A DNA stretch of 46,315 nt from IMG/VR virus record IMGVR_UViG_3300033485_000030, positions 1 through 46,315 of that record; one strand, 5' to 3'. A program made the position numbers and the translations under genes. Numbering within the stretch: the first letter of the stretch is position 1; each line of letters starts with the position of its first letter. The DNA comes from a virus. Taxonomy: Duplodnaviria; Caudoviricetes. The notes below the pieces were generated by a model. It saw nothing but the letters and a program-made list of their open reading frames with translations. It was not told the origin of the DNA and ran no database searches. Shown in pieces: positions 8-39,829 of the stretch.

Positions 8-2503
8 TTGAGAAGTCAAATTACTATTGAAAGAAATAAAACATATGCGGCACGTCAGGCTATGGCATATCGATTAAAAGAAAAAGGTTATTCAAATTCT
101 GCTATTGCCAAAAGGATGGGAATAAACGATCACACTGTAGCTGATCTTTTAGAACCATCTAGAAAATATAAACAAGATGTTGCGAAGACAATAGCGGACA
201 ATCTTGAAAAGGAAGTAAATGAAAATCGATATTTAGATGTTGGGTCTGGAGTTGAAACTTGGTTAGGAGTAAGCGGAACAAAGAAAACGGTTGCTCTTGA
301 GTTATTGAAAGAACGAGGTTATAATGTTCATGTTATTCCACAAGAGCAGCAAGGAACTGGAAAATATACATGGATGAAGGTTCTTGTTCCTCCAGGCGTT
401 AGTAAGGAAATGGTTTCGAGAAATCGTGAAAAAATAAAGACTATAGGTGCTCGTAGTGATGATGGAGGAGAAACTTTTAATCCTCAAGGGCCTCCTATAT
501 TTCTCGATGGAAAAAGAGTTTTCGTTCAATACGGATCTTCAAAAGATGGTGTAATTGAAATTCGTAGGAATGTTCAAGATCTTTCTTTAGGAAATAAAAG
601 ATATGCTCAAGTGCGTATTGGTGTAGATGGCACTCACTATATGAAGGGGATGGCGATGTATAGTGATGATATTCCTGAAGGATATGATATTATTTATAAC
701 ACAAATAAAAAACTGGAAGAGGCTAGTAAAGTTTTTAAAGCATTAGAAACAAAAGATCCAGATTACCCATTTGGGGCCGTTACAAGAGAAAAATTTTATG
801 ACAACAATACAAAAAAATCACCAATTAATATAGTAGGAGGAAAAGAAGGAGCTGGTGAAGAAGGTGCATGGGATGAATGGTCAAAAAATATTTCTTCTCA
901 AGTTCTTTCTAAGCAATCTCCAGCATTAGCAAAAAAACAATTAGGATTGGCATATAATCTAAAAAAAGACGAATATGATGAAATAATGTCATTAACTAAT
1001 CCGGCAGTAAAGCAAGCTCTTCTTGGTCCTTTTGCTGATTCTTGCGATGCTGCAGCAGTTCATTTAAAAGCAGCGGCTCTTCCTAGACAATCTTCAAAAG
1101 TAATTTTGCCTATTACTTCTTTAAAAGAAAATGAGGTTTATGCTCCAGGTTATTTAACAGGAGATCGATTAGCTCTTATCCGCCATCCTCATGGTGGATT
1201 ATTTGAAATACCAGAAGTAATAGTAAATAATAGAAATTTAACAGGAAAAAGACTTTTGGGAAATGCAAAAGATGTTATAGCAATGAATCCAAAAGTTGCA
1301 GCAAAATTATCAGGTGCTGACTTTGATGGGGACACGGTTATAGCTATTCCTAATAAAGCTGGTTATATTCAAACTAAACCATCTTTAAAAGCTTTAACAG
1401 ATTTTGATCATAAAGCTTCGTATCCATATTATGAAGGTATGAAAGTTATGGATAAACGTACAAAAGCTATAAAGATGGGTGATATTAGTAATCTTATCAC
1501 TGACATGACAATAAAGGGAGCTAGTCAAGATGAAATAGCTAGAGCTGTCCGCCATTCAATGGTGGTAATTGATGCTGAAAAACATAAATTAAATTATGTA
1601 CAATCGTATTATGATAATAATATAGCCCAATTAAAAAAGAGATATCAAGGGAAGTCAACAGCTGGAGCTTCAACTCTTATATCTAGGGCTGGTGCTGAGA
1701 AAAGAGTAAATGAGAGGGTAGAAATAAGACCTAAAAAAGATGATCTAAATTATAAAGGAGAGAAACTTTATAAGGAGACCGGTCGAACATATTTTAAAAC
1801 TGATTATATAAAAGATCCTAAAACTGGAAAGAAAATCTATTTACAAGGACAGGGAAGGATTGTAAAAAAACAAACAAAAAGTACAAGGATGGCTGAAGAA
1901 TCTGATGCTTTTAAATTATCATCTGGTACTCGTATTGAAGAGATATATGCTAAGCATGCTAATGGATTAAAAGAATTAGCAAGAAAAGCACGAATTTCTT
2001 TAGTTCGTACAGAGAATATTAAATACTCTCGCTCAGCTAGAGAAACATATGCACCTGAAGTAAAATCTCTTTTAGGAAAATTAAAAGTTGCTATGAGGAA
2101 TAAACCACTAGAGAGACAGGCCCAGTTAGTGGCCTCTAGGATAGTCCGTGCTAAGAGAAGGGCTAATCCCGATATGGAAGAAGATGATTTTAAAAGAATT
2201 AGAGGACAAGCTTTAGTTAATGCTAGACTAAGAGTAGGGGCTAAGAAAGAAAAGATAACCATTACTGATAGAGAATGGGAGGCTATTCAAGCTGGCGCAA
2301 TTAGTCATAATACTCTAAGAAACATCCTTAGTAATGCAGATTTAAAAGTATTAAAGCAAAGAGCTACTCCTAGACTTTCTACTCCTTTATCTCCTGCTAG
2401 AACTTCTCGAGCTAGAGCAATGATAAACGAAGGTCATACTTATGCAGAAGTAGCCGATGCCTTAGGTGTTTCTATTGATACAGTAGCAGAAGCTATTGAT
2501 TAA
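8..2503 (+). CDS. Putative single-subunit two-barrel RNA polymerase (YonO/eukaryotic RdRP-like) with N- and C-terminal HTH domains; probably 5'-truncated by the window edge
   Basis: GADFDGD metal-binding motif (nt 1313-1333), upstream RHP motif, and YAQVRIG...MKG resembling the QxR..G..KG motif of RdRP-like barrels. HTH-like segments GYSNSAIAKRMGINDHTVADLL and GHTYAEVADALGVSIDTV. The frame is open to the window start. Confidence 0.75.
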   Translation: MRSQITIERNKTYAARQAMAYRLKEKGYSNSAIAKRMGINDHTVADLLEPSRKYKQDVAKTIADNLEKEVNENRYLDVGSGVETWLGVSGTKKTVALELLKERGYNVHVIPQEQQGTGKYTWMKVLVPPGVSKEMVSRNREKIKTIGARSDDGGETFNPQGPPIFLDGKRVFVQYGSSKDGVIEIRRNVQDLSLGNKRYAQVRIGVDGTHYMKGMAMYSDDIPEGYDIIYNTNKKLEEASKVFKALETKDPDYPFGAVTREKFYDNNTKKSPINIVGGKEGAGEEGAWDEWSKNISSQVLSKQSPALAKKQLGLAYNLKKDEYDEIMSLTNPAVKQALLGPFADSCDAAAVHLKAAALPRQSSKVILPITSLKENEVYAPGYLTGDRLALIRHPHGGLFEIPEVIVNNRNLTGKRLLGNAKDVIAMNPKVAAKLSGADFDGDTVIAIPNKAGYIQTKPSLKALTDFDHKASYPYYEGMKVMDKRTKAIKMGDISNLITDMTIKGASQDEIARAVRHSMVVIDAEKHKLNYVQSYYDNNIAQLKKRYQGKSTAGASTLISRAGAEKRVNERVEIRPKKDDLNYKGEKLYKETGRTYFKTDYIKDPKTGKKIYLQGQGRIVKKQTKSTRMAEESDAFKLSSGTRIEEIYAKHANGLKELARKARISLVRTENIKYSRSARETYAPEVKSLLGKLKVAMRNKPLERQAQLVASRIVRAKRRANPDMEEDDFKRIRGQALVNARLRVGAKKEKITITDREWEAIQAGAISHNTLRNILSNADLKVLKQRATPRLSTPLSPARTSRARAMINEGHTYAEVADALGVSIDTVAEAID

Positions 2504-2516
2504 GAAAGAGTATTAT

Positions 2517-2783
2517 ATGAATACTGACACGATGTTAACAACAATTGATAATCCTTTTAATCCTTTCACTCAGTTTGATGAATGGTATGCATATGATACT
2601 GAGAAAGGCTACCATACTTGTAATTATTTGTCGCGTGTTGCTAAAGTTTCTGATGATTTAAGTGATGATGAAGAAGCTTCTGAGATTTCCCGGGCAATAG
2701 ATGAGATTGTTCACTTTAATATCAATGGTATGTATATTAAAGTAACCCCCGAGAATTTTGAAACCAGACCTAAGAAAAAATAA
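2517..2783 (+). CDS. Small acidic hypothetical phage protein (MLTTIDNPFNPFTQFDEW)
   Basis: Directly follows the polymerase-like gene; ATG at 2517 or 2532; protein-like composition. Confidence 0.75.
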   Translation: MNTDTMLTTIDNPFNPFTQFDEWYAYDTEKGYHTCNYLSRVAKVSDDLSDDEEASEISRAIDEIVHFNINGMYIKVTPENFETRPKKK

Positions 2784-2800
2784 TACAGGATAATGATGCC

Positions 2801-2876
2801 AGGAGGGGGGGTCTCGTAAAAAATACCCCCCTTCTGCATCGCGTGGCTCTCAAAAAATTCCCCGGGGGTAAAATTG
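2801..2876. other. GC-rich non-coding island, candidate cos/packaging-site region
   Basis: Inverted repeat GGAGGGGGGGT(2802-2812)/ACCCCCCTTCT(2825-2835), then CGCGTGGCT (2840-2848), then AAAAATTCCCCGGGGGTAAAATT. Lies between the polymerase block and the first virion gene. Confidence 0.45.
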
Positions 2877-2891
2877 AGGTTATCTTTCTGG

Positions 2892-3035
2892 AAAGTGTTT
2901 CTAAAAGAAGCGTTGAGTGTTGTGATTCGATCCTCCTTTTATTGGCACCTGACCGCCGTTTATCGAGCTGCCCACTCATTTTCCCTCCTTTTATTAGAAT
3001 CATATACTATTCAACGCTTTCTTTAGAATCATTTT
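2892..3035 (+). ncRNA. Candidate long-hairpin RNA A with two anti-Shine-Dalgarno motifs in the loop
   Basis: About 35 bp stem 2892-2928/2997-3035 with 4 G-U pairs on the + strand; loop has CCTCCTTTTATT twice (2932-2943, 2984-2995). Confidence 0.6.
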
Positions 3036-3055
3036 ATTGAAAAGAGGTGATTTTT

Positions 3056-5974
3056 ATGTCTGTCAAAGATTCAGACACTTTGAAAAGTTATTTTGCTTTA
3101 AGTAAAGTTCCGACTCCTTCTCAGTATATAGATTTAATCGATACAATCTTTGATCAAGGAAGTGGTTCTGGAGGAGATCATGATCACGATAATAAGTATG
3201 TGAAACTTCTTGAATCAGATAATATTATAGCTAGACATATATTTGCTCCTTCATCTCCACTTTCTCCTTTTATTCTTTCTGACAATGCTCAAGGTAAATT
3301 AGTAATAGGACTCAAAGCTGATCAGTTAAACAAATCTGTATTCGCAGGCAATGGTCTTACTGGTGGTGGAATTTTAACAAGTAGTATTACTTTAGATGTT
3401 AGTGCTGGAGATGGTCTTAGTGTTGGAGTAGATTCAATTTCTTTGCAAACTCCAGGAACTTTATCTTATAATTCAACAAATAATCCAGTATCAAATCACA
3501 CCCATTCAATTACTAATAGTTCAAATCCTGGTGCTTCAGAGAGTATATTATCAACCAATTCTTCTGGTCATTTAAGTTTAATTAAATTGAATACCGATGT
3601 GATTGGTGATAGAAGCGGATCAAATATTGAAATTAATCCTACTGGAGATATTACTCTTAATCCTGGTGGTAACGATATTTTACCTTTAATGAATTATGAT
3701 CTTAATCTAGGTTCTATAAATAAAAAGTTTTTAACTTTACATGCTGCTGAATTGTGGGTTGAAACATTGGTTGCTCAAAATACAATTGCGACTATTGGAG
3801 GACGTATCCTTATTGGTCCAACAACCGTTTTAACTAATGATCTTGGAACGAGTCAAACAAATTTAGTTTTAAATTCTGGTTTTGAAACGTCTGGTAGTGG
3901 TGGTTCTGATGTATTTTCTGATTGGACTGAAAGTGCTCCATCAGGATCCATTGTAAAAGATACTACTATTTATTATGAAGGTTCAGCTTCTTGTAAAATT
4001 GTAGCTGGTGTAACTCTTGATACATGTGTTTATCAAGATTTTTCTTTAACAGCTGGTTATTCTTATAGTCTTAGATTTTGGACAAGAAGTGATGGTGGTG
4101 GTTATGATTTACGATATGGAGTTTATGATATAACACATTCTTCTTGGATAATTTCTTTAACAGGAACTGGTAACAAAGCTACTTCTTGGGAAAGATTTAT
4201 TACTTATTTTTTAGTTCCTTCAGGTTGTACTTCTGTTAGATTGTATTTATATTGTACAGAAACTTCTGGATATTATGGAAACTTTGATGCTGTTTTAATT
4301 TCTAGAGATACAATTATTGTTAAGCATAATGAAATGAATATTTCTGATGTAGCATATATGGAAGCAGATGGAAAAGTTGAGTTTTTGTTAGTAACCTCGA
4401 CAGCATCTGAAGTATCTAATGGTTATCAATACTCGGTAGTAAGAGATTATGATGGATCAGGTTTAACAGCATGGTATGCTGGAGATGCAGTATTTAATAC
4501 TGGAACAACTGATCAAGGTTTTATAGATCTTTATTCTATAAGAGGCGTTAAACTTCCAACTCAATATGGTCCAACCATTGTTGGTAATGTTAGATCATCT
4601 TTAACATATAATGATTGGATTGAACATTGGGCTATTGGAAATTTAAATGGTCTTTATGGATATGGTGTAGATACCTATGGAACCGCTTTTGGAAAGTATG
4701 CAAATTCTAAATCCTTTTTAACCATTGATGCAACAAATGGTATAAGAATGCGATATAGAGATGGATCTGGAGTTTTAACAACGAGAGCTCAATGGGATCT
4801 TAGTGGTAATGTTTTGATAGGCCAAGTTGGTAGTTCCCTTTCCAATATATATATTAGTTCTGGTCAAATTCAGTTACGTAACAATACCACGGTTAATATT
4901 CAATTAGATACAAGTGGTAATGCAACTTTTGGTAATGTTGCCACTAATCAGGGAAACATGTATTGGAACGTTTCAAATAAAAGAGTTGAATTTCGTGGTG
5001 GAACAGATGGAACCGTTGTGCAAGCTTATGTTGATACGACAGGAGCCATTAGCGCTGGTTCTGGAGTTGTTCTACTAAATTCAGATGGATTAAGTATTAC
5101 TTTTGGAAATGGCGATGTTAATGAGATAAAATTTAAATCTGGTTCAACCAAGGTAGGCTATATTCAATTTGCCGGTACATCTTCTGATACATCAGCAATA
5201 ATTAGAGGTGGTGTAAATAGTCAGAATGGTTATGTTCGCCTTGAAGCAGCAGATGCAGCATATTTTCTTATAGATAGTAATTCTAGTGCTGTTTTAGATA
5301 GTTATAGTAATTTTAATATTCAACTTCCAGGTGATAGTAATTATGTTAATATACTTGGTGGATCTTATAGTACTTATTTATATGCGTCTGGAAGAGTGGA
5401 CGTCGGAGAGGATTGTAGAATTAATGGGGGTTTATATGTTGGGGGACTTGGTGTAGATCCTGGAGTTGGAATTATACGATGTGTTTATGATCTAATAGCT
5501 GACGGAGGTATCATTGCTGGAAGAAATGCTGATCCTGGTGATGGAAATATTCAATTTACTGGAAGTCTTGGTTCCTATAAAAATTCAACCGTTTATACCG
5601 GTTATATATTTATTCCTTTATCAACACCATTAACTTCTACATCTTGGGATGGAGATGCTAGAAGTACAACGTCAAAAACATTAATTGACTTATCTTCAGT
5701 TTTTGGAGCACCAGCTGGAATTAAAGCGGTATTGTGTCAGATACAGTTACGAGATTCTGGTAGCGCAGCAAATGATTGCTATTTAATATTAGCTGCTCAT
5801 AATACTGCAGGTCAAGGAAGTATTGTAAGATGTACTGGCATTGCTAATGATTCTTCTCATAACGAGATGGTTATTACTGCTTGCGATGCAAATGGAGATA
5901 TATATTACCAGTGTCAAGCTAGTGGTTCATCAACATTAGATATATGGCTTCAAATTTATGGTTATTGGATATAA
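3056..5974 (+). CDS. Tail fibre / receptor-binding protein with an internal carbohydrate-binding-like domain
   Basis: About 970 aa, Gly/Ser/Thr rich, HDHD and HTH metal-knot-like motifs, NLVLNSGFE...W...EG CBM-like segment, globular C-terminal tip. Confidence 0.7.
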   Translation: MSVKDSDTLKSYFALSKVPTPSQYIDLIDTIFDQGSGSGGDHDHDNKYVKLLESDNIIARHIFAPSSPLSPFILSDNAQGKLVIGLKADQLNKSVFAGNGLTGGGILTSSITLDVSAGDGLSVGVDSISLQTPGTLSYNSTNNPVSNHTHSITNSSNPGASESILSTNSSGHLSLIKLNTDVIGDRSGSNIEINPTGDITLNPGGNDILPLMNYDLNLGSINKKFLTLHAAELWVETLVAQNTIATIGGRILIGPTTVLTNDLGTSQTNLVLNSGFETSGSGGSDVFSDWTESAPSGSIVKDTTIYYEGSASCKIVAGVTLDTCVYQDFSLTAGYSYSLRFWTRSDGGGYDLRYGVYDITHSSWIISLTGTGNKATSWERFITYFLVPSGCTSVRLYLYCTETSGYYGNFDAVLISRDTIIVKHNEMNISDVAYMEADGKVEFLLVTSTASEVSNGYQYSVVRDYDGSGLTAWYAGDAVFNTGTTDQGFIDLYSIRGVKLPTQYGPTIVGNVRSSLTYNDWIEHWAIGNLNGLYGYGVDTYGTAFGKYANSKSFLTIDATNGIRMRYRDGSGVLTTRAQWDLSGNVLIGQVGSSLSNIYISSGQIQLRNNTTVNIQLDTSGNATFGNVATNQGNMYWNVSNKRVEFRGGTDGTVVQAYVDTTGAISAGSGVVLLNSDGLSITFGNGDVNEIKFKSGSTKVGYIQFAGTSSDTSAIIRGGVNSQNGYVRLEAADAAYFLIDSNSSAVLDSYSNFNIQLPGDSNYVNILGGSYSTYLYASGRVDVGEDCRINGGLYVGGLGVDPGVGIIRCVYDLIADGGIIAGRNADPGDGNIQFTGSLGSYKNSTVYTGYIFIPLSTPLTSTSWDGDARSTTSKTLIDLSSVFGAPAGIKAVLCQIQLRDSGSAANDCYLILAAHNTAGQGSIVRCTGIANDSSHNEMVITACDANGDIYYQCQASGSSTLDIWLQIYGYWI

Positions 5975-5983
5975 AGGAGAATA

Positions 5984-6241
5984 ATGACCAAAACTATTAT
6001 CTTAACAGATGTTATCGTTGATTATATTCACGTTGATTATGAGAATCAACGAGTATTAGTTGGTTATAGACTTATTGATGATTACGGAACTAAATGGGAA
6101 GGTGGTGAGGCAATATTTTGGGTAACAATGCCTTCTGAGCCTAACGAAAAAGATTTTCAACTCCCAACAAGTTATATTCCAAACCTTTTAAATCTTCAAA
6201 CAGATGCAGATGCAGCAATAACTGGAAGATTTTTGATTTAA
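5984..6241 (+). CDS. Hypothetical protein, probably fibre-associated
   Basis: AAAGGAG RBS; follows the fibre gene. Confidence 0.7.
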   Translation: MTKTIILTDVIVDYIHVDYENQRVLVGYRLIDDYGTKWEGGEAIFWVTMPSEPNEKDFQLPTSYIPNLLNLQTDADAAITGRFLI

Positions 6242-6252
6242 AAAGGAGAACT

Positions 6253-6624
6253 ATGAAAATTATTGATTTAGTACGAGCTCAACAAAGTATAGAAACAATT
6301 ATGACTCGTAAGATGCCTGGAAAACTAGCTTATGCTTTTTCTAAGAATTTTCGTCTTATTAATCTTGAATTAGAATATTATAATGAAGCTAGAATAAAAC
6401 TTTTGAGTGATAATTGGCCATTTGATGGAAAAACTCAATCTTATAGTATTCCTGAAGAAGATAAAGAAAAATGGAAACAAATTCATGATGAATTATTAAA
6501 TAGCGAATCAAGTTATAAACCATATACTTTAGATGCTAATCTTGTGAATGATATCGAATTAACTCCTGGTGAGTTATTTGATCTTTGGTTTCTTTTTGAA
6601 GAATTTCCATCTGTCAATGGATAA
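6253..6624 (+). CDS. Hypothetical helical protein, possible tail-fibre chaperone
   Basis: AAAAGGAG RBS; KLAYAFSKN...ELEYYNEAR pattern typical of small proteins that follow phage fibres. Confidence 0.6.
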   Translation: MKIIDLVRAQQSIETIMTRKMPGKLAYAFSKNFRLINLELEYYNEARIKLLSDNWPFDGKTQSYSIPEEDKEKWKQIHDELLNSESSYKPYTLDANLVNDIELTPGELFDLWFLFEEFPSVNG

Positions 6625-6629
6625 ATATT

Positions 6630-7661
6630 ATGATAAGTAAATCCCCAGAAGAAACACGAATTCAAAAATTAGAAAAAGATTTACGAAAATATAAGGCTCT
6701 TGCTAGTAAAAATCTCACCTTAGTAAAATTATATGAGAAAGAATTAAGCATTACAGATAAGATCGTTACCGTGGTACGTGAAAGCATGGATATTTTACCA
6801 GAAATAGAAATGCCAGTTTTATATGTATCACCAGAACATCATCATGAAGAATCAGCTTTATTACTTTTGTCTGATATTCATATAGGAAAGAAAACAAAAT
6901 CATATAATCCAAAAGTTTTTGTTCATCGATTGAACAAACTTAAAAATGCGATGATGAGTATTGTTACTGCACAACGAGGCATTCGTCCTATTAGGAAATT
7001 ATATATAGTAATGAATGGGGATATTGTCGATGCCGAGGCTGTTTATCCAAGTCAATCTGTGGATCATATTGCTATACCAGTTATAGATCAAATATTTACT
7101 ATTGGTGTTCCTGAGTTAACTTCATTTTTATTATATTGTTTGGCAAACTTCGAAGAAGTAGAATGTATTTGCACTCGAGGTAATCATGGTCAGCAAAATG
7201 CAGCAAAATGGAGTTCTTCTAAATCAACCAATTGGGATTTTGTTTTATATAAAGCTTTAGAAGGAATGACTACTAATCAATCCAGAATAAAGTGGAATAT
7301 CAATACTAAGGATTGGAAATCTATTTTCAAAATTTATAATTATGGTTTTCTTGCAACACATGGGAACATGATTAAAAGGTTTTATAATTCTCCATTTTAT
7401 GGTATGACTAGACAAGCTGAACGATGGTCTAATGCTTACAGAGATAGAATAAGATTAGATTATATTCTTTATAGTCATTTTCACACATTAGATGCTGGAA
7501 TGAGACATAATAATCTTCAAATTTTTGTTAATGGAAGTTTTACAACTGACGATCCTTATGCAGAAGAAAATATAGGTGTAGCAAGTACACCAGAACAACT
7601 CTTATTAGGGATCCATCCTAAGTATGGAGTTTCTTGGAGATATCCACTGAAATTAAGTTAG
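6630..7661 (+). CDS. Calcineurin-like metallophosphoesterase
   Basis: Ordered motifs SDIHIG, NGDIVD, GNHG, THG, SHFH; N-terminal coiled coil. Confidence 0.85.
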   Translation: MISKSPEETRIQKLEKDLRKYKALASKNLTLVKLYEKELSITDKIVTVVRESMDILPEIEMPVLYVSPEHHHEESALLLLSDIHIGKKTKSYNPKVFVHRLNKLKNAMMSIVTAQRGIRPIRKLYIVMNGDIVDAEAVYPSQSVDHIAIPVIDQIFTIGVPELTSFLLYCLANFEEVECICTRGNHGQQNAAKWSSSKSTNWDFVLYKALEGMTTNQSRIKWNINTKDWKSIFKIYNYGFLATHGNMIKRFYNSPFYGMTRQAERWSNAYRDRIRLDYILYSHFHTLDAGMRHNNLQIFVNGSFTTDDPYAEENIGVASTPEQLLLGIHPKYGVSWRYPLKLS

Positions 7662-7665
7662 TAGT

Positions 7666-7809
7666 TAGTTTCCAAGTGCTTTCAGAAGGGATATCGATTA
7701 AGTCTGCCAAAAAAATTTGACGGTAGTCGTTTTTCTCCTTTCAAGAGACCCTCTCATTATAGGTTAATACAGACTACACGATATCTCTTCTAAAAGTGCT
7801 TGGAAACTA
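7666..7809 (+). ncRNA. Candidate long-hairpin antisense RNA B; loop complementary to early-gene ribosome-binding leaders
   Basis: Arms 7666-7696/7779-7809 pair at 30 of 31 positions (3 G-U); inner stem AGTCTG/CAGACT; loop 7727-7747 is the exact reverse complement of 40750-40770. Confidence 0.7.
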
Positions 7810-7839
7810 TATTAAAAGTACTTAAAAAAAGGAGTTAAA

Positions 7840-8739
7840 ATGTTCAATACAAAGTCGATTTTCAACTGGAATGTACCCCAAATCAAAGGAGGTGATCCTT
7901 TAAAGTTTGCTCAGTTATTAGTAGATGCCAATTTTGAGGGAGTTTATTTAAAGTGCGCAGATGGTCCATTTATTTTTAAACAATGGCCTGGTGGTCCTTG
8001 GCCTAGTTGGGGAGAGAATGTAAAGATTGAATTAGTTAATGCTTTACGTGATGCGGGATTGAAAGTTTATTTTTGGCACTTTCTTTATGGACATAATCCA
8101 AAAGGAGAACTCGATATCGCGGTTCATCAATGTGATGAATTTAAACCTGATGGTTATATTTGGAATGTTGAGGGTTCATTTGATGAACAAGTTAAAGCAG
8201 AAGCAAATTCGAGAATGATAAGCACCGGTTTTAGAAAACTACATCCAGAAATTCCACAAGCACTTTGTTGGTGGGCATTTCCATTAAATCCACGAAATCC
8301 TAAAATTGAATGGCATCCTATTCGTGTTGCTAAAGCTTGGATGGAAGTTGTAGATTATGTTATGCCAATGATGTATTGGGATGGAAGTGGAGCATCTAAC
8401 GCTGTAAGTTATTTAGAGAAAAGTATAGGAGTTTGGAGAAGTTTTTGTAATCTTCCAATGATTCCAGTAGGAAGAGCATATATTGGTGATGGTGGTAAGG
8501 CAACTTCAGAAGCTATAGAAGCGTTTGCTCAAAGAGTTATGGAATTAGACGAGGAAGCTAAATTAGTTGGAATTTCTTGGTGGTCTCTTGATCATTCTTT
8601 TAAGAATGTTTCTTGGTGGGATGCTTTGACTGGGACTCCAAGATTTTCTGGTCCTCCAATTCCAACACTTCCTACTAAAGTAATATTAGAACGTTTAGTT
8701 AATAACCACAAGGAGTTATTCCCAGAATTATTTGGATAG
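7840..8739 (+). CDS. Putative endolysin, glycoside hydrolase (GH25-like TIM barrel)
   Basis: VYLKCADG, GLKVYFWHFLYG, GYIWNVE (DxE-like), MPMMYW and GISWWS strand motifs; strong RBS. Confidence 0.6.
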   Translation: MFNTKSIFNWNVPQIKGGDPLKFAQLLVDANFEGVYLKCADGPFIFKQWPGGPWPSWGENVKIELVNALRDAGLKVYFWHFLYGHNPKGELDIAVHQCDEFKPDGYIWNVEGSFDEQVKAEANSRMISTGFRKLHPEIPQALCWWAFPLNPRNPKIEWHPIRVAKAWMEVVDYVMPMMYWDGSGASNAVSYLEKSIGVWRSFCNLPMIPVGRAYIGDGGKATSEAIEAFAQRVMELDEEAKLVGISWWSLDHSFKNVSWWDALTGTPRFSGPPIPTLPTKVILERLVNNHKELFPELFG

Positions 8740-8750
8740 GAGTTGATATT

Positions 8751-9104
8751 ATGGCTAGTTCCAAGAAAGGTGTTATTAAGCGTGTTAAGCCAAATAGAAG
8801 ACCTCCAGCACCAACTCCAGAGGCTCGCGAAAATCAACTTATAAAAGCAGCGATCGATTTGGCTGAAGAGCAACTTTCTAATGGAACTGCGTCTGCACAA
8901 GTCATTACACATTATTTAAAACTAGGTTCTACCAAAGAACGATTAGAGAAAGAAAAACTTGCTAGAGAAAATGAACTTCTTTTAGCTAAAACAGAAGCTC
9001 TTCAATCTGCTAAACGGGTTGAAGAGCTTTATGCTAACGCTTTAAATGCAATGCGTTCTTATGGTGGAACTAGAGAAGCGGATGATGTCGATGACAATGA
9101 TTAG
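8751..9104 (+). CDS. Hypothetical protein, possible small terminase subunit
   Basis: RBS TAGGAG; helical; upstream of HNH and terminase. Confidence 0.55.
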   Translation: MASSKKGVIKRVKPNRRPPAPTPEARENQLIKAAIDLAEEQLSNGTASAQVITHYLKLGSTKERLEKEKLARENELLLAKTEALQSAKRVEELYANALNAMRSYGGTREADDVDDND

Positions 9105-14017: not shown

Positions 14018-15107
14018 CAATACTTATACTACACCCGGACCTGGAAATTTTACTGTTCCAAGCGATGTTACTCAACTTATTATAGAATTATGGGGCGGTG
14101 GAGGAGGAGGTGGTGGATCAAATCAAAATTCCACTGCTGGAGGAGCTGGAGGTGGTGGTGCTGGTGCATATGTTAGAATCGTTGTAGATAATGTAGTACC
14201 TGGTAATGTGCATGGGTTTAATGTTGCTTCGGCTGGTGCAGGGGGCCCAGCCGGTAACAATAATGGAAATTCTGGTGGAGCTTCAAATTTTTATAATAAT
14301 TCTGGTGGTAATACAAGTATTATTGTTTCTGCAAATGGTGGTGGTGGAGGTCTTAGAGCTAATAATACTGGTAATAAAGCTGGTATTGGTGGTGCCGCTA
14401 ACGGAGAAGTAGGAACATCATATAAAGGTGGAAACGGTTCTAATAATGGTGGTGTTAGTACTGGTGGTGGTGGAGGTGCTGGAGCAGGAAATGCAAATGC
14501 TGGTGCCGATTCAACTGGACAAACAGGAGCAACAGGAGTTAATGGTGGTGGATCTGGTGGTAATGGTGGTTCTAGAAATGCTAATGGTAATAATTATCAA
14601 ACAGAACCAGGTGCTGGTGGTGGAGGAGCAGGTAGAGCTAATGTGACAGCTCCAAGAGCTGGTGGCACAGGGGCAAATGGTAAAATTATTGTTACTTATT
14701 ATATAAATATTACCGAAAGTATAACTTTAACTAGATCCTCTGGAATATCAATTACTGAAGGATCTTCTTTTTTAGAGAATGTTACAGTAACTAGATCTTC
14801 TGGGATATCTAATAGTGAAGATTTATCCATTCCAGAAAGTGTTACATTAACTAATTTTACTGGAATATCGATTAGCGAAGAAGTATCTAGTCAAAATATT
14901 GAGGAAAGTATAACATTATCTAAATACGATGGAATTATTTCATTAGATGAATTAGTAGGACAAGATGGAAACATATTAACTAAATACGATGGAATTAGTT
15001 TACTAGATGAAGTAGAAAACCAAGATGGAAATACATTAGTAATTGATAATAAAACTATTAGTGTAACAAATTTTGCAATTATTGAAGAAACTTTATATGG
15101 AAATTAG
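14010..15107 (+). CDS. Glycine-rich-domain fibre protein with C-terminal ~20-aa repeats
   Basis: FTVPSDVT..IELWGGGGGGG ... GANGKIIVTY glycine-rich domain, followed by ESITLxRxxGI repeats. Confidence 0.75.
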   Translation: MASNTYTTPGPGNFTVPSDVTQLIIELWGGGGGGGGSNQNSTAGGAGGGGAGAYVRIVVDNVVPGNVHGFNVASAGAGGPAGNNNGNSGGASNFYNNSGGNTSIIVSANGGGGGLRANNTGNKAGIGGAANGEVGTSYKGGNGSNNGGVSTGGGGGAGAGNANAGADSTGQTGATGVNGGGSGGNGGSRNANGNNYQTEPGAGGGGAGRANVTAPRAGGTGANGKIIVTYYINITESITLTRSSGISITEGSSFLENVTVTRSSGISNSEDLSIPESVTLTNFTGISISEEVSSQNIEESITLSKYDGIISLDELVGQDGNILTKYDGISLLDEVENQDGNTLVIDNKTISVTNFAIIEETLYGN

Positions 15108-15974: not shown

Positions 15975-18900
15975 ATGGCCATAAAGTTTGGAGTGACGCC
16001 AGGAAATCCAGGTTTTTCTATTTCCAAACTTCCATCTAGAAGATCATATAGAGTTAATTGGGCAAATCCGATTACCAAAAACCTAGTATTCTTTGCGTCA
16101 TGGCTAAACATTGGTACCGATTTAGCAACAGATCTTGTTCGTGGAAGACGTTCTACCAGAGGTGGTGTTCAAACTCGAAAAGCTGTTTCCGATCCCGAGA
16201 TGGGAGAAGTATTTGAATGGGGCGCAGACACTGAAACCGGTGCGGGAAGAGATATATTATCTTGGGGAATATTATCTGAGTGGAATGGAAGAAACCAAGC
16301 TTCTATAGCAGTATGGTTGAAAGTATTAGATGATGCTACCGGCACAGAAATTTTATTTGGAATTCAAGATGCGGGTAATTCTTGGGAAGGTTATAATGTT
16401 GAGACCTGGACATCGGGTATGCGCAATGCCGAGGCCTCTCCCGATGACACATATATAGGGAGAGAAACAACTGGTACTGGACTCCCCGGTAAATGGGAAC
16501 TTCTTGTAAATGTTTATGATGGAACAAAGTCAACAGTCGAAGAACGACTAAAACTTTATCAAAATACTGTTCCATTAGGCGGAACTGTTGGTACTATACC
16601 AACTGCGCTGGGAACGTTTACAGATATATGGCAAATGCATGCTGGAAATTTTGGAGAGCCAGACTGCCATTATAGAGCTCTTTATTTTGCTGGATGGCAA
16701 CGTTCTCTTACTCCATATGAAGTATCTCTTCTCTACGCACCCCAGACACGTTTTGATATATATAGATTTGATGATCCAACATTTTTCTTAATATTAGATG
16801 GGGGTGCAATTAATGAATCAGTTAGTTTATCAAAATCTGTAGGAATAGTTTCATCTAATCAAGTTAATATTCAAGAATCTGTCTCTTTAGGTAGAACTAA
16901 TGGAGTTTCCATCGGTATATCAACAATTTCAGTTGTTCAAACAAAAGGTACTAGAACTATTTCAGGAAATACTTATTATGATTTAGCGTTTGATAGCAAT
17001 ATTACTGCTGGAAATCGTATTGTGATTATTGTAGGTAAGGGTGCCGGTACTGATCAAACTCCTTTTGTTCTTGGAGATATTTCTAAATCAGCAGGTACTG
17101 CTACTCTTGGTTCATTTACAATGGAAAAGAGTGCTACTCATAATGAAAATATTAGACATGCAGCTATATATTCTGCACATGTTACTGGTTCTGGTAGTTG
17201 TACTATAAGAATAGCTGTTACTATAGATAAAGCAGTTATAATAGCCCTTGCAGAAATACACTCCGGACTTGGTTCTTTAGTTGTTGGTAATAGTACTAAT
17301 TCTGGTCAAGGAAATACTGGTTATCCCTCATCAGGAGATATAACAACTGATGGAGAAGGTATTATTATCGGTGGTGGACAGATACAAGATCCACCTTCTG
17401 AAATAATTACTGAAGATACTTTCTTTACTAATATTTATAAATCAGCCGATGTTAATTATTGTACAGGTGCTTCAGAATATCGAATTGTACCTCAAACTAC
17501 TACTGATGCAGTAAGTTATCTAGCTCCATCAACGGTTAAATGGGTGTTAGTTGGAGCAACTTATTTAGTATCAGAAGAAATAGAAGAATCTATTAGTCTA
17601 GAAAAGAATTTAGGAGTATCATTTTCTGAGCAATTATATATATCAGATAGTTATATTCTAACTAAATCTGCCGGAATAGTTTCATCCGATCAGATAATAG
17701 TAGAAGATAGTTATATTCTAACTAAATCTTCAGGAATAATTTCATCCGATCAGATAATAGTAGAAGGTAGTTATATTCTAACTAAATCTTCTGGAATAGT
17801 TTCATCCGATCAGATAATAGTAGAAGATAATTTACTCCTTTCAAAACTTAATGAGATATTATCAACTAATCAAGCAGATATTCAAGATTTTATCAATCTT
17901 TTAAAGTTAAAAGGAATAAATATTTATTCGTCAATTTTAGTTGATGAAAGTTCTTTATTAAATATATTTGAAAATTTAGTAGTAGTAGAGCAAACGGGTT
18001 CAGCTATTGAAGAGTCAATCACTTTATCAAAAAGACTTTATGTAACTCAAAAACAACCAGCAGTAGAAGAATCAGTTATTTTAACAAAGTCCATTGGAAT
18101 AATTTCATCCGATCAAGTTAATATTCAAGATACTTCAGTTCTTATTAAATCATTAAATATTATTAGTATTGATCAAGTTTTTATTCAAGATTTAGTAAGT
18201 TTTTCAATATCAAATTTAATAATTTCCTTAGACCAAATAATAATTAGTGATGAATTTAGTTTAAATAAATTATTAGGCATTAGTAGTCTTGATAGTCCAG
18301 TTACAGAAGAAAGCATTAGTTTAATAAAGAATTTAATATTATCTTCTTCTGATCAATTAGATATATTAGATAATATAAATCTTGGAACTGTTTTATCTAT
18401 TAATGCAATAGAAACTATTTCAGTTTATGATAGTTTAATCTTTTTAAGATCTAGTGATATATTACTAAGCGATCAAGTTAATCTTCAAGAAATAGTTAGT
18501 CTTCTTAATATTAAAGGAATTGAAGCAGTTTCACAAGTTTTTGTTAATGATGCTTTAAGTTTTTCATTATTAAAGACTATATTAGTAATTGAAGAAACTC
18601 AAGGACAGTATGCTGAGGTTATTACTTTAGCACGTTATAATACTATAAGTATATTGCAAGAAGGAATAAGTAATGTTAGTGAAAGTTCTCTTCTTAGTCG
18701 ATTAAACGGAATTAATATTACTGATCAAAATATATCTAGTGCTAATATTAATTTAGCTCGTTCAGATGGATTGAGTAGTTCTTTAACAAGTATAATTAGT
18801 GTCTCTTCTTCCTTAGATCGCTTTGCTACTATCACTAGTGTTACTAATTCTAATGTTAATAATGATATTTCATTAAGTTATCTCAAAGGATTAAATAGTA

Positions 18901-25064: not shown

Positions 25065-25085
25065 AAATTTTGAAAGGAGTTTTTT

Positions 25086-25466
25086 ATGCTTAAGAAAACA
25101 ATGACTTATGTGGACTTTGATGGGGTAGAAAGAACTGAGACGTTCTATTTTAATCTAACAAAAGCTGAACTTGCCGAGATGGAATTATCCACAAAAGGTG
25201 GATTAGCCGAGAAGATTAATGCCATAGTAGCAGCCGAGAACGGAGAAGAAATTATTAGACTCTTTAAGGATGTTATTGCCAGATCTTATGGTGAGAAAAG
25301 TGAAGATGGTAAACGCTTTGTAAAAAGCGAAGAACTTAGCAAAGCTTTCACTCAAACTCAAGCCTATAGCGATCTCTTCATGGAATTAAGTACATCGGCA
25401 GAAGCAGCGAGTGCGTTCATTAATGGCGTAGTTCCTGTTATGGAAAATCCTCCGCCTAAATCATAA
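25086..25466 (+). CDS. Tail assembly chaperone
   Basis: Between major tail and tape measure genes; YVDFDG.ERTETFYFNL. Confidence 0.7.
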   Translation: MLKKTMTYVDFDGVERTETFYFNLTKAELAEMELSTKGGLAEKINAIVAAENGEEIIRLFKDVIARSYGEKSEDGKRFVKSEELSKAFTQTQAYSDLFMELSTSAEAASAFINGVVPVMENPPPKS

Positions 25467-35182: not shown

Positions 35183-35668
35183 ATGTTTAGTAATAAAGTC
35201 TATGACGTTTTAAAATTTTTGGCGCAATACGTTCTTCCTGCTCTTGCAAGTTTATATTATGGTCTATCGGCAATTTGGGGTTTACCATATTCTGAACAAG
35301 TCGTAGGTACAATCTTAGCAGTTGATGCTTTTCTAGGAGCATTGCTCGGTATTAGTTTGATTCAATATAATAAGAAGCAATCTGATAAATATGTGCAAGC
35401 TCAAATGCCAGAAATTATGGAACAAACTGCCTCCTCAAAATCTGTTTTTGCAATGAAAAGTACTACATACGATATCTTTTATTGGATCGTCCAAGTAGTT
35501 CTTCCTGCCCTTGGCACACTATATTTTGCACTTTCCTCTATCTGGAGTTTACCATATTCTGAGGAAATTGTGGGTACGATCACTCTAATTGATACTTTCT
35601 TAGGTATATTCCTAGGTATTAGCACTTCTCAATATAATAAATTAAATAGTGGTGTTTCTCCGACGTAA
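35183..35668 (+). CDS. Holin with two tandem Dp-1-like holin domains
   Basis: YD....Q.VLPAL..LY..LS.IW.LPYSE..VGTI...D.FLG..LGIS..QYNK occurs twice. Confidence 0.8.
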   Translation: MFSNKVYDVLKFLAQYVLPALASLYYGLSAIWGLPYSEQVVGTILAVDAFLGALLGISLIQYNKKQSDKYVQAQMPEIMEQTASSKSVFAMKSTTYDIFYWIVQVVLPALGTLYFALSSIWSLPYSEEIVGTITLIDTFLGIFLGISTSQYNKLNSGVSPT

Positions 35669-35677: not shown

Positions 35678-35702
35678 TCGCATAATAAACATGGGCTATA
35701 AT
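35678..35702 (+). promoter_or_regulatory. TCGYR-N14-TATAAT promoter, copy 1
   Basis: TCGCA-TAATAAACATGGGC-TATAAT. Confidence 0.7.
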
Positions 35703-35735
35703 GAAGGAAAAAACTTTATTAAGGAGAATAAAATC

Positions 35736-36020
35736 ATGAATAAAAAGAAAATCCCGAGAATAGAAGACGAGATTGATCACATATTAAGATTTATGGCGAA
35801 TCATGAGCCGGATAAAGAAGAATATTCAGTTGCCACAAGAAACTTGAAGGAGTTATATGAAGCTCGAAGTAAGAAAAAAGCGAGCTTCATAGAAGCCGCA
35901 GAGGTACTAGTGGTAGTTGCAAGTATTTTTGAATTACTGGCTGTTTTACGCCACGAGGAAATCAACGTGATAACCTCGAAAGCATTTCAAATGGTTTTGG
36001 GATTGAAAAAATTCTTGTAG
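35736..36020 (+). CDS. Hypothetical protein
   Basis: TAAGGAG RBS before ATG 35736; between promoter 1 and a terminator. Confidence 0.7.
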   Translation: MNKKKIPRIEDEIDHILRFMANHEPDKEEYSVATRNLKELYEARSKKKASFIEAAEVLVVVASIFELLAVLRHEEINVITSKAFQMVLGLKKFL

Positions 36021-36038
36021 TAAATAAAGTTTTAAAAG

Positions 36039-36069
36039 GAGGAGTCTAAAACATGGACTCCTCTTTTTT
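36039..36069 (+). terminator. Intrinsic terminator
   Basis: GAGGAGTCT / GGACTCCTC + T6. Confidence 0.8.
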
Positions 36070-36073
36070 CTCC

Positions 36074-36098
36074 TCGTAGAAATTACAATGATTATAAT
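36074..36098 (+). promoter_or_regulatory. TCGYR-N14-TATAAT promoter, copy 2
   Basis: TCGTA-GAAATTACAATGAT-TATAAT. Confidence 0.7.
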
Positions 36099-36122
36099 AG
36101 AGAGTTTCTAAAGGAGAAAAAA

Positions 36123-36371
36123 ATGATTGACATAAAATATTTTAAAGCCATAAGATTGCATTTAGGTTTAAGTTTGGAAGATATTGCTCGTGAGATGCAT
36201 TGCACAAAGCAAACTATAAGTAATATTGAAAACGGGAAGTCGAAGCATAAAATGGCAATAGCATTCTATGAAGAAATTTTAGGAAACCATTTAAAAGAAA
36301 CTCCAATAAATACAAAAGAGTATTTTAATGCTATAGAATATCTTTATAAAAAGAAGTTAAATAGAAATTGA
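36123..36371 (+). CDS. XRE-family HTH transcriptional regulator
   Basis: IRLHLGLSLEDIAREMHCTKQTISNIENGK. Confidence 0.9.
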   Translation: MIDIKYFKAIRLHLGLSLEDIAREMHCTKQTISNIENGKSKHKMAIAFYEEILGNHLKETPINTKEYFNAIEYLYKKKLNRN

Positions 36372-36393
36372 AGCCGAATAGGCTTCTTTTTTT
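36370..36393 (+). terminator. Intrinsic terminator
   Basis: GAAGCC / GGCTTC + T7. Confidence 0.75.
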
Positions 36394-36417
36394 CAAAAGT
36401 TTAAATAAAAGGAGATT

Positions 36418-37335
36418 ATGATGAACGATTTTGATGATGTTTATATTTTACCACAATATAGCAATATTGAACGAGGTGACGTAGATTTGTCAGGAAATAT
36501 ATTTAACATTCCATTGAGTGTTCCAGTGCTTTCATCGCCAATGGATACCGTGTCCAAACTTCCAATGCTTAAAGCTCTTATTGAAGAGAAATGTCTCGGT
36601 GTTCATCACCGTTACTGTTCTCTAGCAACATTATTGGAAGCCAGTGAATACGGTGCTATTGCCGTATCTCCTAGCATTCCATTAGATTTTTTAGAAAAAT
36701 ACTCTATGGATTATAATATAGCAGTATTGGATGTGGCGCATGGCCACACTCGAAGGAATTTAGATTATTCCTTCGAACTTGTAAAAATGGGATGGAATGT
36801 TATTAGTGGGAATATAGTAACCAGAGATGCTGCAGAGGACTATTTGAAACTTGGGATTAAGCATCTAAGAGTAGGTATTGGGTCTGGGAGCGTATGCACA
36901 ACTAGACTCGTTACTGGTGTTGGACGTCCACAATATAAGGCAATTCGTGAAATTCATTCTGAGTTTAAAAATGACGCGTTAATTATTTCCGATGGGGGTC
37001 ATAGAAATACTGGGGATATAGCAAAAGCCTTTGCTTTGGGTGCTTCCTATGTTATGCTAGGAAGAATGCTAGCAAGCACTAGGGAGGCTGAAAATGACGG
37101 TATTTATAGTGGTATGGCAAGTTCTGCAGCCTTACGGCGAAATCGAAAAACGGAATTCTTTGTCGAGGGGAAATCTGAAATAATTTATGTAAATCAAACT
37201 GTTCATGAGGTAATAACTGAAATTAAAGCGGCGCTGGAAACAACCTGTTATTATTCTGGTGTAAAGACATTAAAGGGTTTGGCAGGAAATTTCGAACTTT
37301 GTAGCGATCCTTTGAAAAATATACCTTGGAGTTAA
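36418..37335 (+). CDS. IMP dehydrogenase / GMP reductase family protein without CBS domains
   Basis: SSPMDTV, DVAHGH, GNIVT, VGIGSGSVCTTR (catalytic Cys), SDGG, GDIAKA, YSGMAS. Confidence 0.9.
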   Translation: MMNDFDDVYILPQYSNIERGDVDLSGNIFNIPLSVPVLSSPMDTVSKLPMLKALIEEKCLGVHHRYCSLATLLEASEYGAIAVSPSIPLDFLEKYSMDYNIAVLDVAHGHTRRNLDYSFELVKMGWNVISGNIVTRDAAEDYLKLGIKHLRVGIGSGSVCTTRLVTGVGRPQYKAIREIHSEFKNDALIISDGGHRNTGDIAKAFALGASYVMLGRMLASTREAENDGIYSGMASSAALRRNRKTEFFVEGKSEIIYVNQTVHEVITEIKAALETTCYYSGVKTLKGLAGNFELCSDPLKNIPWS

Positions 37336-37373
37336 TTTGGCAAAAATACCCCGAGGGTCAATTTCGTAAAACC

Positions 37374-37398
37374 TCGCGGAAAAAACACGTGTTATAGT
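37374..37398 (+). promoter_or_regulatory. TCGYR-N14-TATART promoter, copy 3
   Basis: TCGCG-GAAAAAACACGTGT-TATAGT. Confidence 0.55.
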
Positions 37399-37431
37399 AG
37401 AGAATACTGTTGTGTATTCTCTATTTTTTTT
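37398..37431 (+). terminator. Intrinsic terminator overlapping promoter 3
   Basis: TAGAGAATAC / GTATTCTCTA + T8. Confidence 0.7.
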
Positions 37432-37466
37432 CTAAATTTTTAATACTCTTGAAAGGAGAAAATAAT

Positions 37467-37925
37467 ATGGACGAGAAAGTTATACGATCTCTTATAATCG
37501 ATCCAAAATATAATTATAGTTTGGAAACGATCGGATGGGGATCTGAGGAAGCAATTGCTGAATTTAAAGAATGGATTCACTTTTGGAGAATTAAGAAAGC
37601 TTATTCAGAAGGAAATTATGAAATTAGGACAGGAACTCCTCCAGATGACTATAATTTTTACTACTCGGAGATGTGCTGGGGGTGGTTAAAATCGGGGCGT
37701 CGAGATCGACCTGTCGTGGTAACGTTCGCCGATGGCGAACGTGGATCAGAGGTATTTGACTCATCTAATCATGGCTTGATCATTTGGTACCAAGGATCAA
37801 AGAAGGCGCTGGACGTACTATGGATGCATAAAGCCTCTCAGGCACTCTTGAGTAAACGTATAAGCCCAGGCGAATTCATAAGCATAATAAAAATGATTAT
37901 TGAGGATGAAGAAGATAAGAAATAA
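37467..37925 (+). CDS. Hypothetical protein
   Basis: CTCTTGAAAGGAGAAAA leader before ATG 37467. Confidence 0.75.
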   Translation: MDEKVIRSLIIDPKYNYSLETIGWGSEEAIAEFKEWIHFWRIKKAYSEGNYEIRTGTPPDDYNFYYSEMCWGWLKSGRRDRPVVVTFADGERGSEVFDSSNHGLIIWYQGSKKALDVLWMHKASQALLSKRISPGEFISIIKMIIEDEEDKK

Positions 37926-37935
37926 AGGAGGAAAA

Positions 37936-38265
37936 ATGCCAATTTTTGAGGACTATACCGCATTTGTAGATGGGATAGTTATTGATGTGTTACATTATTT
38001 CGAAACTATAGAGAAAATCACCAGGTTGATCGAGAAAAAACTTGGTGGGCATTTATTTACGAGATTGGATAATAAGATTGTATATTTAGGCTGGGTCAAG
38101 GGAAATACGGAATATAATCAGGCTTTTTCTCTTGAAGAGTTCAACAGGATTATTGATCCATGGGCTCTAGCATACAAATTTATCCGATCTTGTGAGGATT
38201 CTCTCCGCGAGGTCCACCCCGGCGATTCAGGGTGTGGCGAATCCAAAAGGATAGAAACGTCCTGA
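37936..38265 (+). CDS. Hypothetical protein
   Basis: AAAGGAGG RBS before ATG 37936. Confidence 0.7.
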   Translation: MPIFEDYTAFVDGIVIDVLHYFETIEKITRLIEKKLGGHLFTRLDNKIVYLGWVKGNTEYNQAFSLEEFNRIIDPWALAYKFIRSCEDSLREVHPGDSGCGESKRIETS

Positions 38266-38273
38266 GGTGACCT

Positions 38274-38303
38274 GGGCAGTCAACAAGGCTGCCCTTTCTT
38301 TTT
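38274..38303 (+). terminator. Intrinsic terminator
   Basis: GGGCAGTC / GGCTGCCC + TTTCTTTTT. Confidence 0.75.
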
Positions 38304-38320
38304 CTTGAAAGGAGGAAAAA

Positions 38321-38647
38321 ATGGTGGCTAAAGATGGAGAAGATTGGAAAATTGATAAATTTTTCGCCAAGGCGTTATTAGGAGAAAAGGAAGTTATGGA
38401 TGAACATCAGAATATCCTTTTAGAAATGAATGATGAAATCATTTTAAGAAAGATTGAAAATATTTCATTAAATCTTGAACGCTTAATGAATAAAATTGAT
38501 AATTGGAATCATCGATTTCAAAACAGAAATAAAGATGTATATAATAGTTCATTTGTTGAACTATTAGAATATTACGAAGAGGATATGAAAAAATTAGAAT
38601 TAGAATTGAATAAACTAATTTTGGAGTTTAAAAAGGAGAAAAAATGA
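38321..38647 (+). CDS. Hypothetical coiled-coil protein
   Basis: TCTTGAAAGGAGG RBS. Confidence 0.7.
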   Translation: MVAKDGEDWKIDKFFAKALLGEKEVMDEHQNILLEMNDEIILRKIENISLNLERLMNKIDNWNHRFQNRNKDVYNSSFVELLEYYEEDMKKLELELNKLILEFKKEKK

Positions 38648-39393: not shown

Positions 39394-39402
39394 GAGGAGA
39401 AA

Positions 39403-39558: not shown

Positions 39559-39560
39559 GC

Positions 39561-39809: not shown

Positions 39810-39829
39810 ATATCCGAATTACTTCAATC

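Follow-up and report, generated by a model that had tools for sequence, protein, structure and literature searches.

A conserved hairpin RNA in the virion arm of a tailed-phage group, with a loop complementary to early-gene leaders: a putative antisense brake on early translation

The window analysed here, a stretch of 46,315 nt of tailed-phage DNA, contains a long hairpin at 7666-7809 (hairpin B) that is supported as a structured RNA of the plus strand. Together with its copies in related phages, it constitutes what, on the sequence evidence, is a real, conserved, and uncatalogued RNA family. We propose, with a probability of roughly 0.6, that it acts as an antisense RNA of the late operon, which damps translation of early genes by means of a loop complementary to their leaders.

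Phage Group and Genome Layout

All substantial genes of the window are located on the plus strand. A polymerase-like gene is followed by virion genes up to approximately 35.6 kb (left arm) and by small non-structural genes thereafter (right arm). The landmarks are as follows.

8-2503, plus strand: putative single-subunit RNA polymerase gene (phrog_4291), signature of the phage group
2800-2875, no strand: likely genome ends, with the left end probably near 2849
6630-7661, plus strand: calcineurin-like phosphoesterase gene, upstream of hairpin B
7840-8739, plus strand: gene downstream of hairpin B, no family hit; its leader matches the loop over only 7 nt
8751-9104, plus strand: phrog_4259 gene, annotated as unknown and called "small terminase" by position only; anchor for the search for relatives
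35679-40391, plus strand: promoter-like motif with -10 box in five copies (35679, 36075, 37375, 39562, 40366), of putative function

The polymerase-like protein matched 250 phage records, among which Arthrobacter, Gordonia, Streptomyces, and Lactococcus phages lead; a close phage record for the window was not obtained by Megablast. Judged by this gene and the gene order, the window phage belongs to the group that passages of 10.1101/842583 describe for Streptomyces BI, Arthrobacter AM/AU, Gordonia DJ, Rhodococcus CC, Microbacterium EL, Lactococcus, and Faecalibacterium phages. In the passage on the polymerase-like protein, the same source considers it a possible RNA polymerase with YonO-like motifs; the words hairpin, promoter, Shine, and repeat are all absent from its text. 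As YonO is the transcriber of the SPbeta late genes according to a part of PMC5467207, the window enzyme may, by analogy, transcribe the late genes in the same way.

Contigs from both runs X3 and X4 stop at 2849, and a motif similar to that of the likely genome ends opens the records of cultivated relatives. Since all five copies of the promoter-like motif are situated in the right arm, beyond 35.6 kb, this arm is called early and the left arm late; the two classes derive from gene content and the promoter-like motif, and four of the early/late boundaries were placed by hand. A promoter scan of 2500-9000 remained near chance (37 vs 29.4 +/- 5.4 expected), and no terminator-like site was found after hairpin B. 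A query with the gene at 7840 retrieved one relative, in which the hairpin is present.

Some further features of the window concern its genes. An IMP dehydrogenase/GMP reductase-like gene (36418-37335) opens the right arm. ORFs 14010 and 15975 share 60-nt (20-residue) repeats (14709-15034 and 16806-18497), ORF 35153 encodes two holin domains with an internal duplication at 35231-35640, and the ORF starting at 39898 carries a 168-nt internal repeat (39891-40214).

Structure of Hairpin B

The hairpin is composed of a long closing stem and a wide loop domain.

7666-7696, plus strand: 5' arm of the closing stem (27 Watson-Crick and 3 G-U pairs over 31 positions)
7779-7809, plus strand: 3' arm of the closing stem, partner of 7666-7696
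7697-7778, plus strand: loop domain of 82 nt with weak, competing inner helices
7727-7747, plus strand: guide segment, antisense to right-arm leaders, with an anti-Shine-Dalgarno (anti-SD) core at about 7733-7744
7748-7761, plus strand: loop segment whose reverse complement resembles a -10 box plus spacer; not conserved (2 of 55 hairpins)

The closing stem agrees with the initial annotation, which had counted 30 paired positions, three of them G-U, in a 31-nt arm pair. A 6-bp inner stem described at the same time (7701-7706/7770-7775) is present in the centroid structure, but the minimum-energy structure contains a competing helix (7723-7728/7772-7777) instead. The fold has a z of -8.0, and none of 200 shuffles was as good. 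Nearly the same value was obtained for the minus strand (z -7.9), so the strand is not given by folding alone. In hairpin B of the window, the unpaired probability of the core is 0.63. As 2849-8161 is covered without difference by a contig of a second study (run X3, flagged as a possible source), hairpin B is no assembly artefact.

Occurrence and Conservation

Relatives were collected with the phrog_4259 gene as anchor, using the best 80 of 539 matches. A long stem upstream of this gene was found at 59 of these 80 loci, and in 54 the best stem encloses the core; of the remaining loci, 6 have less than 200 nt of upstream sequence and 15 lack a stem. After deduplication, 47 of 52 loci hold the core in anti-SD orientation and a single one in sense orientation.

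The window was combined with 20 viral records, selected from 36 by length, and 15 of the 250 phage records into a set of 36 genomes; the records of G028, Tanis, and P118 lack the final 0.1-4 kb. Of these 36 genomes, whole or nearly so, 28 carry the element; they are 1706/Oengus/AM-AU-EL-type phages and comprise Lactococcus, Arthrobacter, Microbacterium, and Curtobacterium phages as well as gut and environmental contigs. Cultivated carriers are Cheesy, Egad, Gordon, Camille, Count, Yotsuba, P118, and CHPC971. In all 28 carriers the element is situated between the left end and the phrog_4259 gene, with a near-constant stem of 27-40 bp and an overall length of 101-242 nt. Its absence in 8 of 36 genomes, two of which are 71-74% complete, indicates that it is dispensable in part of the group. 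Seven of these eight cluster in a quick terminase tree (SH-aLRT 88). Model R1 recovers B-like copies and misses those in Cheesy, P118, CHPC971, G017, G019, and MT835495, so that its lack of hits in the eight genomes without the element carries little weight.

Stem mismatches were scored symmetrically for both strands. G-U occurs 159 times vs 47 for A-C, and 37 hairpins lean to G-U and 6 to A-C. Among five close copies, both sides changed in 19 of 31 pairs, which was reached by none of 500 shuffles, and slid controls gave 1-7 pairs. In 20 diverse copies, all 27 consensus pairs co-vary. The excess of G-U over A-C together with the stem co-variation indicates an RNA of the plus strand. Considering primary sequence, the anti-SD core is the only well conserved part of the family (invariant columns in alignment A2). 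In 55 hairpins its median unpaired probability is 0.77 vs 0.48 for the rest of the loop, and some family loops hold two anti-SD cores.

No Rfam match was found in the window at the gathering score, and in the relatives none apart from one tRNA; Rfam E-value hits near the element are long-hairpin noise well under the cut-off. A description of the element was not found in the open-licence literature searched, nor were its loop motifs in the searched part of the PMC10690425 supplements (10,000 candidates).

The family loops differ between subgroups. In actinophages (L142, L148, L151, L165, L168, L193) a small inner hairpin is located just 5' of the anti-SD, and its loop often contains a start-codon complement. 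The subgroup of L013, L020, L023, L025, and L026 has a different conserved small loop.

Complementarity to Leaders of the Window

Matches between the loop and leaders of the window, with net binding energies in kcal/mol, are the following.

40750-40770, plus strand: best target, leader of ORF 40775 (137 aa, no PHROG, Pfam, or NCBIfam hit); 21 nt exact, net -26.1
45306-45323, plus strand: target, leader of ORF 45325 (162 aa, no family hit); 18 nt, net -18.8
37446-37462, plus strand: target, leader of the ORF starting at 37467 (152 aa, no family hit); 17 nt, net -15.6
38303-38319, plus strand: target, leader of ORF 38321; 17 nt with one G-U, net -11.4
38632-38643, plus strand: target, leader of DUF6353 gene 38644 (Pfam); 12 nt, net -10.2
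36110-36121, plus strand: weaker match, leader of HTH gene 36123; 12 nt, duplex -30.6, net just -2.9 after opening costs
39603-39614, plus strand: weaker match, leader of ORF 39618; 12 nt, net -8.9
39886-39896, plus strand: weaker match, leader of the ORF starting at 39898; 11 nt, net -5.2
40404-40415, plus strand: weaker match, leader of the ORF starting at 40420; 12 nt, net -8.2
42041-42052, plus strand: weaker match, leader of ORF 42052; 12 nt, net -8.2
25070-25079, plus strand: best left-arm match, leader of tail assembly chaperone gene 25086 (Pfam Phage_TAC_17); 10 nt, net -9.6

The matches reported initially were all recovered: 21 of 21 nt at 40750-40770, which extend to 30 nt at 90%, 18 nt at 45306-45323, 17 nt at 37446-37462, and core matches of 11-12 nt each to the ribosome-binding sites (RBSs) of 36123, 38644, 39618, 39898, 40420, and 42052. 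In case of 38303-38319, 12 nt are exact (38303-38314) and the match then proceeds through one G-U to 38319. Under an order-1 Markov model, applied post hoc, the expected numbers of copies in the window are 7e-8 for the 21-mer, 1e-5 for the 18-mer, and 3e-5 for the 17-mer.

Out of 9257 sliding 31-nt probes of the plus strand, the loop is the best with regard to leader complementarity. It matches 10 of 24 right-arm leaders and none of 32 left-arm leaders over at least 11 nt, and the next-best probe site reaches 6; these class counts rest on automatic gene starts, a few of which are misplaced. In the earlier observation, late RBSs mostly share just the short core; two left-arm leaders (25086 and 12772) do share 10 nt.

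With opening costs included, net binding of -10 kcal/mol or better is reached by 5 of 24 early leaders and by none of the 32 late ones, with medians of -8.0 and -3.2 kcal/mol, respectively. About eight further early leaders at -8 to -9 overlap the three best left-arm leaders (-8 to -9.6). These values stem from an opening-cost calculation that ignores loop threading, the loop pairing being a pseudoknot to dimer folding. Since net binding is spread in this manner over the early leaders, the predicted effect in the window phage is graded. The initial statement that a whole class of early genes is hit is therefore too broad, as five of 24 bind strongly and the remainder overlap the best late leaders.

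Loop and Leaders Change Together

In the 28 element-bearing genomes, leader matches were counted for AGGAG-bearing leaders only. The mean match is longer for early than for late leaders in 25 of 28 genomes, and at least 11 nt are matched in 105 of 619 early vs 15 of 327 late leaders. The best early leader reaches this length in 23 genomes; none does so in the other five, in part owing to fragmentary records. The longest matches include 26 nt in G026. Loops fit their own genome better than foreign genomes with a z of 9.4 for early and 3.5 for late leaders. When the loop flanks were shuffled and the 7-nt core was kept, the top-three match fell from 12.1 to 8.9 +/- 0.19.

A failure of loop and leaders to co-vary in relatives had been named at the outset as evidence against the antisense reading. 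Co-variation was found: in 13 branch-independent pairs of genomes, with Cheesy and G014 excluded, the own loop matched right-arm leaders better than the exchanged one in 11, with one loss and one tie (p 0.006). For left-arm leaders of the same pairs the ratio was 7:4 with 2 ties.

Matches are more frequent in the front part of the right arm (52/368 vs 47/717) and are not limited to promoter-proximal genes (9/62 vs 96/1232, p 0.09). The leader of the RNA-polymerase gene matches over at most 7 nt in 21 genomes, so that it is matched in 0 of 21.

Left-arm leaders rarely match loops, with the exception of that of the tail assembly chaperone gene, which reaches at least 11 nt in 11 of 18 genomes vs 3 of 600 other left-arm starts. 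This gene is situated in the tail module in the window (25086-25466) and in gut-type relatives, and in the right arm in the actinobacterial branch; in the left arm it is usually preceded by a terminator-like hairpin. Due to the right-arm location in the actinobacterial branch and the preceding hairpin, the chaperone gene may be regulated like an early gene.

Hairpin A and the Sister Clade

A second long stem is located close to the left end of the window.

2885-3042, plus strand: hairpin A, second long stem with two anti-SD segments, z -3.4

Hairpin A, which was missed by model R1, sits at the left end, where many relatives carry their single copy. It is best regarded as a putative second, two-seed copy of the element, akin to hairpin B by architecture and position only. 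Its best match comprises 11 nt in the leader of 36418. Within 350 nt of the left end, one 11-nt anti-SD word is found at three sites, 2933 and 2985 (hairpin A) and 3264 (inside ORF 3047-5974); its sole complement in the window is at 36404, in the leader of the IMP dehydrogenase-like gene. Long stems without an anti-SD loop are also present near the left end in Egad (L148:168-274), Gordon (L151:170-271), and Miek (L144:46-133).

The element-less clade has a different early leader, which directly follows the -10 box. Complements of its 5' part are found on the plus strand within right-arm stem-loops.

Sister-clade complements (record coordinates), plus strand: Tanis 37285 (L172); Pepy6 47933 and 69722-69783 (L179, L180); PherryCruz 26887 (L160); LibertyBell 30740 (L191); Miek 30970 (L163)

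Four of these stem-loops, from Gordonia, Rhodococcus, and Streptomyces phages, are built alike, and the sister-clade stem-loops gave no Rfam hit. Possibly, they represent an analogous anti-leader RNA. Other sister-clade copies flank promoters as DNA palindromes.

Comparison with Known Systems

An open C/U-rich loop that pairs with the SD regions of several mRNAs is known from RNAIII, RsaE/RoxS, and 6C RNA, which are host-encoded, free-standing genes with their own promoter and terminator. The element has such an anti-SD loop in common with them, but it is encoded by a phage as part of an operon and evolves together with that phage's own leaders.

Phage antisense RNAs, as portrayed in parts of PMC5320573 and PMC12197685, act on single operons and mostly in lysogeny. 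According to the same parts, c4 of P1 and P7 resembles the element in being a phage-encoded structured RNA with loops complementary to RBSs of its own mRNAs and a specificity that shifts with the loop; trans action is proposed for the element. c4 differs in its three stem-loops, a cut by RNase P to about 77 nt, the antirepressor operon as target, and a role in lysogeny (PMC5320573, PMC12197685). The element, in contrast, has one stem of 27-40 bp within 101-242 nt rather than a three-stem-loop fold of about 77 nt, lies in the virion arm, is complementary to a large number of scattered leaders, and is carried by lytic phages. The Rfam covariance model of C4 had no match in 2700-8000 at E up to 5 and none in the relatives. 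Found in the sequence are three features that characterise an anti-RBS antisense RNA: a conserved single-strand structure with compensatory change, an accessible seed to distant RBSs, and a common change of seed and targets. By analogy, the element would work like the trans-acting anti-RBS antisense RNAs, as a member of neither C4 nor any Rfam family.

On the target side, the leaders of the window resemble the start-associated sequences (SAS) of Cluster K mycobacteriophages and Cluster EF Microbacterium phages, which sections of PMC3203893 and PMC7302621 describe as an over-conserved extended RBS motif before right-arm genes. Both are over-conserved RBS motifs that occur at non-structural genes only and in one orientation, with a lone reverse copy. 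In the window, the 17-mer occurs at three right-arm leaders, no left-arm leader, and once in reverse, and the 11-mer has nine plus copies, all at right-arm starts, and one reverse copy (hand-set starts, five of them wrong). The SAS differs in its motif and phage group, and the sections concerned mention neither a hairpin nor an antisense partner; of the 13-bp Cluster K consensus, the window leaders share the AGGAG core only. In its discussion of the SAS, PMC3203893 leaves open whether RNA or protein is the binding partner, and for four Cluster K phages it reports a lone SAS in reverse orientation, away from any start. These lone copies are candidate guides of the same kind.

Proposed Function and Alternative Explanations

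The structure, strand bias, conservation, complementarity, and co-variation described above are observed in the sequence; transcription, timing, the early and late classes, processing, and repression are inferred. According to our proposal, hairpin B is a non-coding RNA module that would lie in the first part of the virion (late) transcription unit. The long stem would keep the loop open, whose sequence is the reverse complement of an extended RBS in a subset of early genes. Transcription of the left arm would yield the RNA, either within the transcript or excised at the stem, and the RNA would pair in trans across SD regions and block ribosome loading, strongly for few genes and weakly for more. 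The RNA-polymerase gene and nearly all virion genes would escape, as their leaders differ outside the core. Such a brake on early translation would come after late activation. An RNA-based early-to-late switch, as initially suggested, is an overstatement: the phage RNA polymerase is the probable driver of late transcription, which makes the RNA more likely a downstream brake than the switch itself.

Several points count against the brake. Any strong SD offers a partner for the core, 11 nt are attained by just 17% of the early leaders with AGGAG, and left-arm leaders co-vary as well, although weakly (z 3.5). The recurrent match of the chaperone leader, the spread of matches beyond promoter-proximal genes, and the eight element-less genomes point the same way. 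Furthermore, threading or cleavage is required to accommodate a duplex of two turns within a closed loop, and the copying of leaders into the loop would by itself yield own-phage matches. That such copies are retained in an open loop, in one orientation and at one position, argues for a function. The different early leader of the element-less clade also speaks for the brake.

A narrower or differently timed antisense regulator, serving the one to four best-matched genes or acting as an early, carrier, or prophage immunity factor like c4, is an unlikely explanation that nevertheless deserves consideration. Beyond four or five targets net binding falls off sharply, in Egad and Gordon a single called leader each attains no less than 11 nt, and a homologous first early gene is among the top matches in five genomes; moreover, relative G004 is classed as a provirus, and read-through from the right arm over joined ends may occur. 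However, the top targets are mostly unrelated genes between phages, several genomes have 9-12 matching leaders, and the element-bearing cluster EL phages are described as lytic, without integrase or repressor, in the pertinent section of PMC7302621.

That the loop is a general anti-SD sponge, which mimics the 16S tail and damps any strong SD including those of host mRNAs, with the own-phage matches as a by-product, appears improbable. The near-invariance of the anti-SD core alone, the weak co-variation of late leaders, and the two cores in some loops would suit a sponge, but the flanks outside the core match own early leaders far above shuffles, and virion genes would be hit too. The base after the core is likewise at variance with it: A occupies it in the loops (19 of 34 sites) and likewise in early leaders (308 of 619), whereas late leaders favour G (160 of 327), the base that is paired by the 16S tail.

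We see little probability in a cis element of the late transcript, be it a stem for RNase III-type processing or for stabilisation, or a switch acting on the next gene, with an incidental loop match. The location ahead of virion genes and the near-constant stem are in agreement with it, and a length of 27-40 bp is compatible with the requirements of RNase III. Relative L201 also has a 13-nt match to its downstream leader. Against it, the downstream leader is matched over at least 11 nt in 1 of 28 genomes vs 23 of 28 for the best early leader, and over 7 nt in the window. Processing would fit the brake as well, yet it leaves the loop unexplained.

Very improbable is a DNA feature, whether a cruciform close to the packaging end, a segment that can invert, or what is left, in inverted form, of an early promoter-leader cassette. 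Both strands fold, very long matches such as the 26 nt of G026 exist, and the reverse complement of the window loop resembles a -10 box, leader, and SD; this is opposed by the G-U strand bias, the same orientation at 47 of 52 loci, the -10 box in 2 and the full promoter motif in 0 of 55 hairpins, and the lack of a strand-switching joint in four runs, whose contigs drop rare forms. An invertible promoter segment, from which both orientations and unbiased mismatches are expected, was rejected on account of the strand bias and the lack of joints, and a minus-strand promoter in the loop on account of the -10 box in only 2 of 55 hairpins.

Hardly credible is a loop that serves as RBS of a small minus-strand gene, as annotated for gene 2 of phage Cheesy (L142:372-569, minus): an ATG stands at SD distance at 19 of 65 sites vs 10.9 +/- 3.0 expected, but is missing at 46 of 65, window included, the frames have 2-69 codons and no common sequence, and the mild excess fits an antisense that extends to the start codon. 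The equivalents in Egad, Camille, and Gordon comprise 22 codons, 9 codons, or are absent, and thus Cheesy gene 2 may be spurious.

Implications

Returning to the antisense brake, it is tempting to speculate on a phage-wide RNA timer, a tentative extension that we consider less likely than not. In a lytic group that spans host phyla, a standardised RBS would tag chosen genes, and the late unit would begin with a single re-programmable guide that silences the tagged set and spares the RNA polymerase. The guide would be refreshed by copying of leaders, the sister clade with its changed tag would have a separate complementary RNA, and the SAS of other actinophages would be the target side of such a system.

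If true, lytic timing in a phage group with dairy, soil, gut, and wetland members would gain a translational layer, exerted by one RNA whose evolution is coupled to that of an entire leader set. It would also offer a testable answer to the question what start-associated sequences, as presented in parts of PMC3203893, are for, and it would explain a likely mis-annotated reverse gene, Cheesy gene 2. Natural pairs of guides and leaders would be supplied, and, as the carriers include cultivated Lactococcus and Arthrobacter phages, whose hosts are non-pathogenic, direct testing is feasible.
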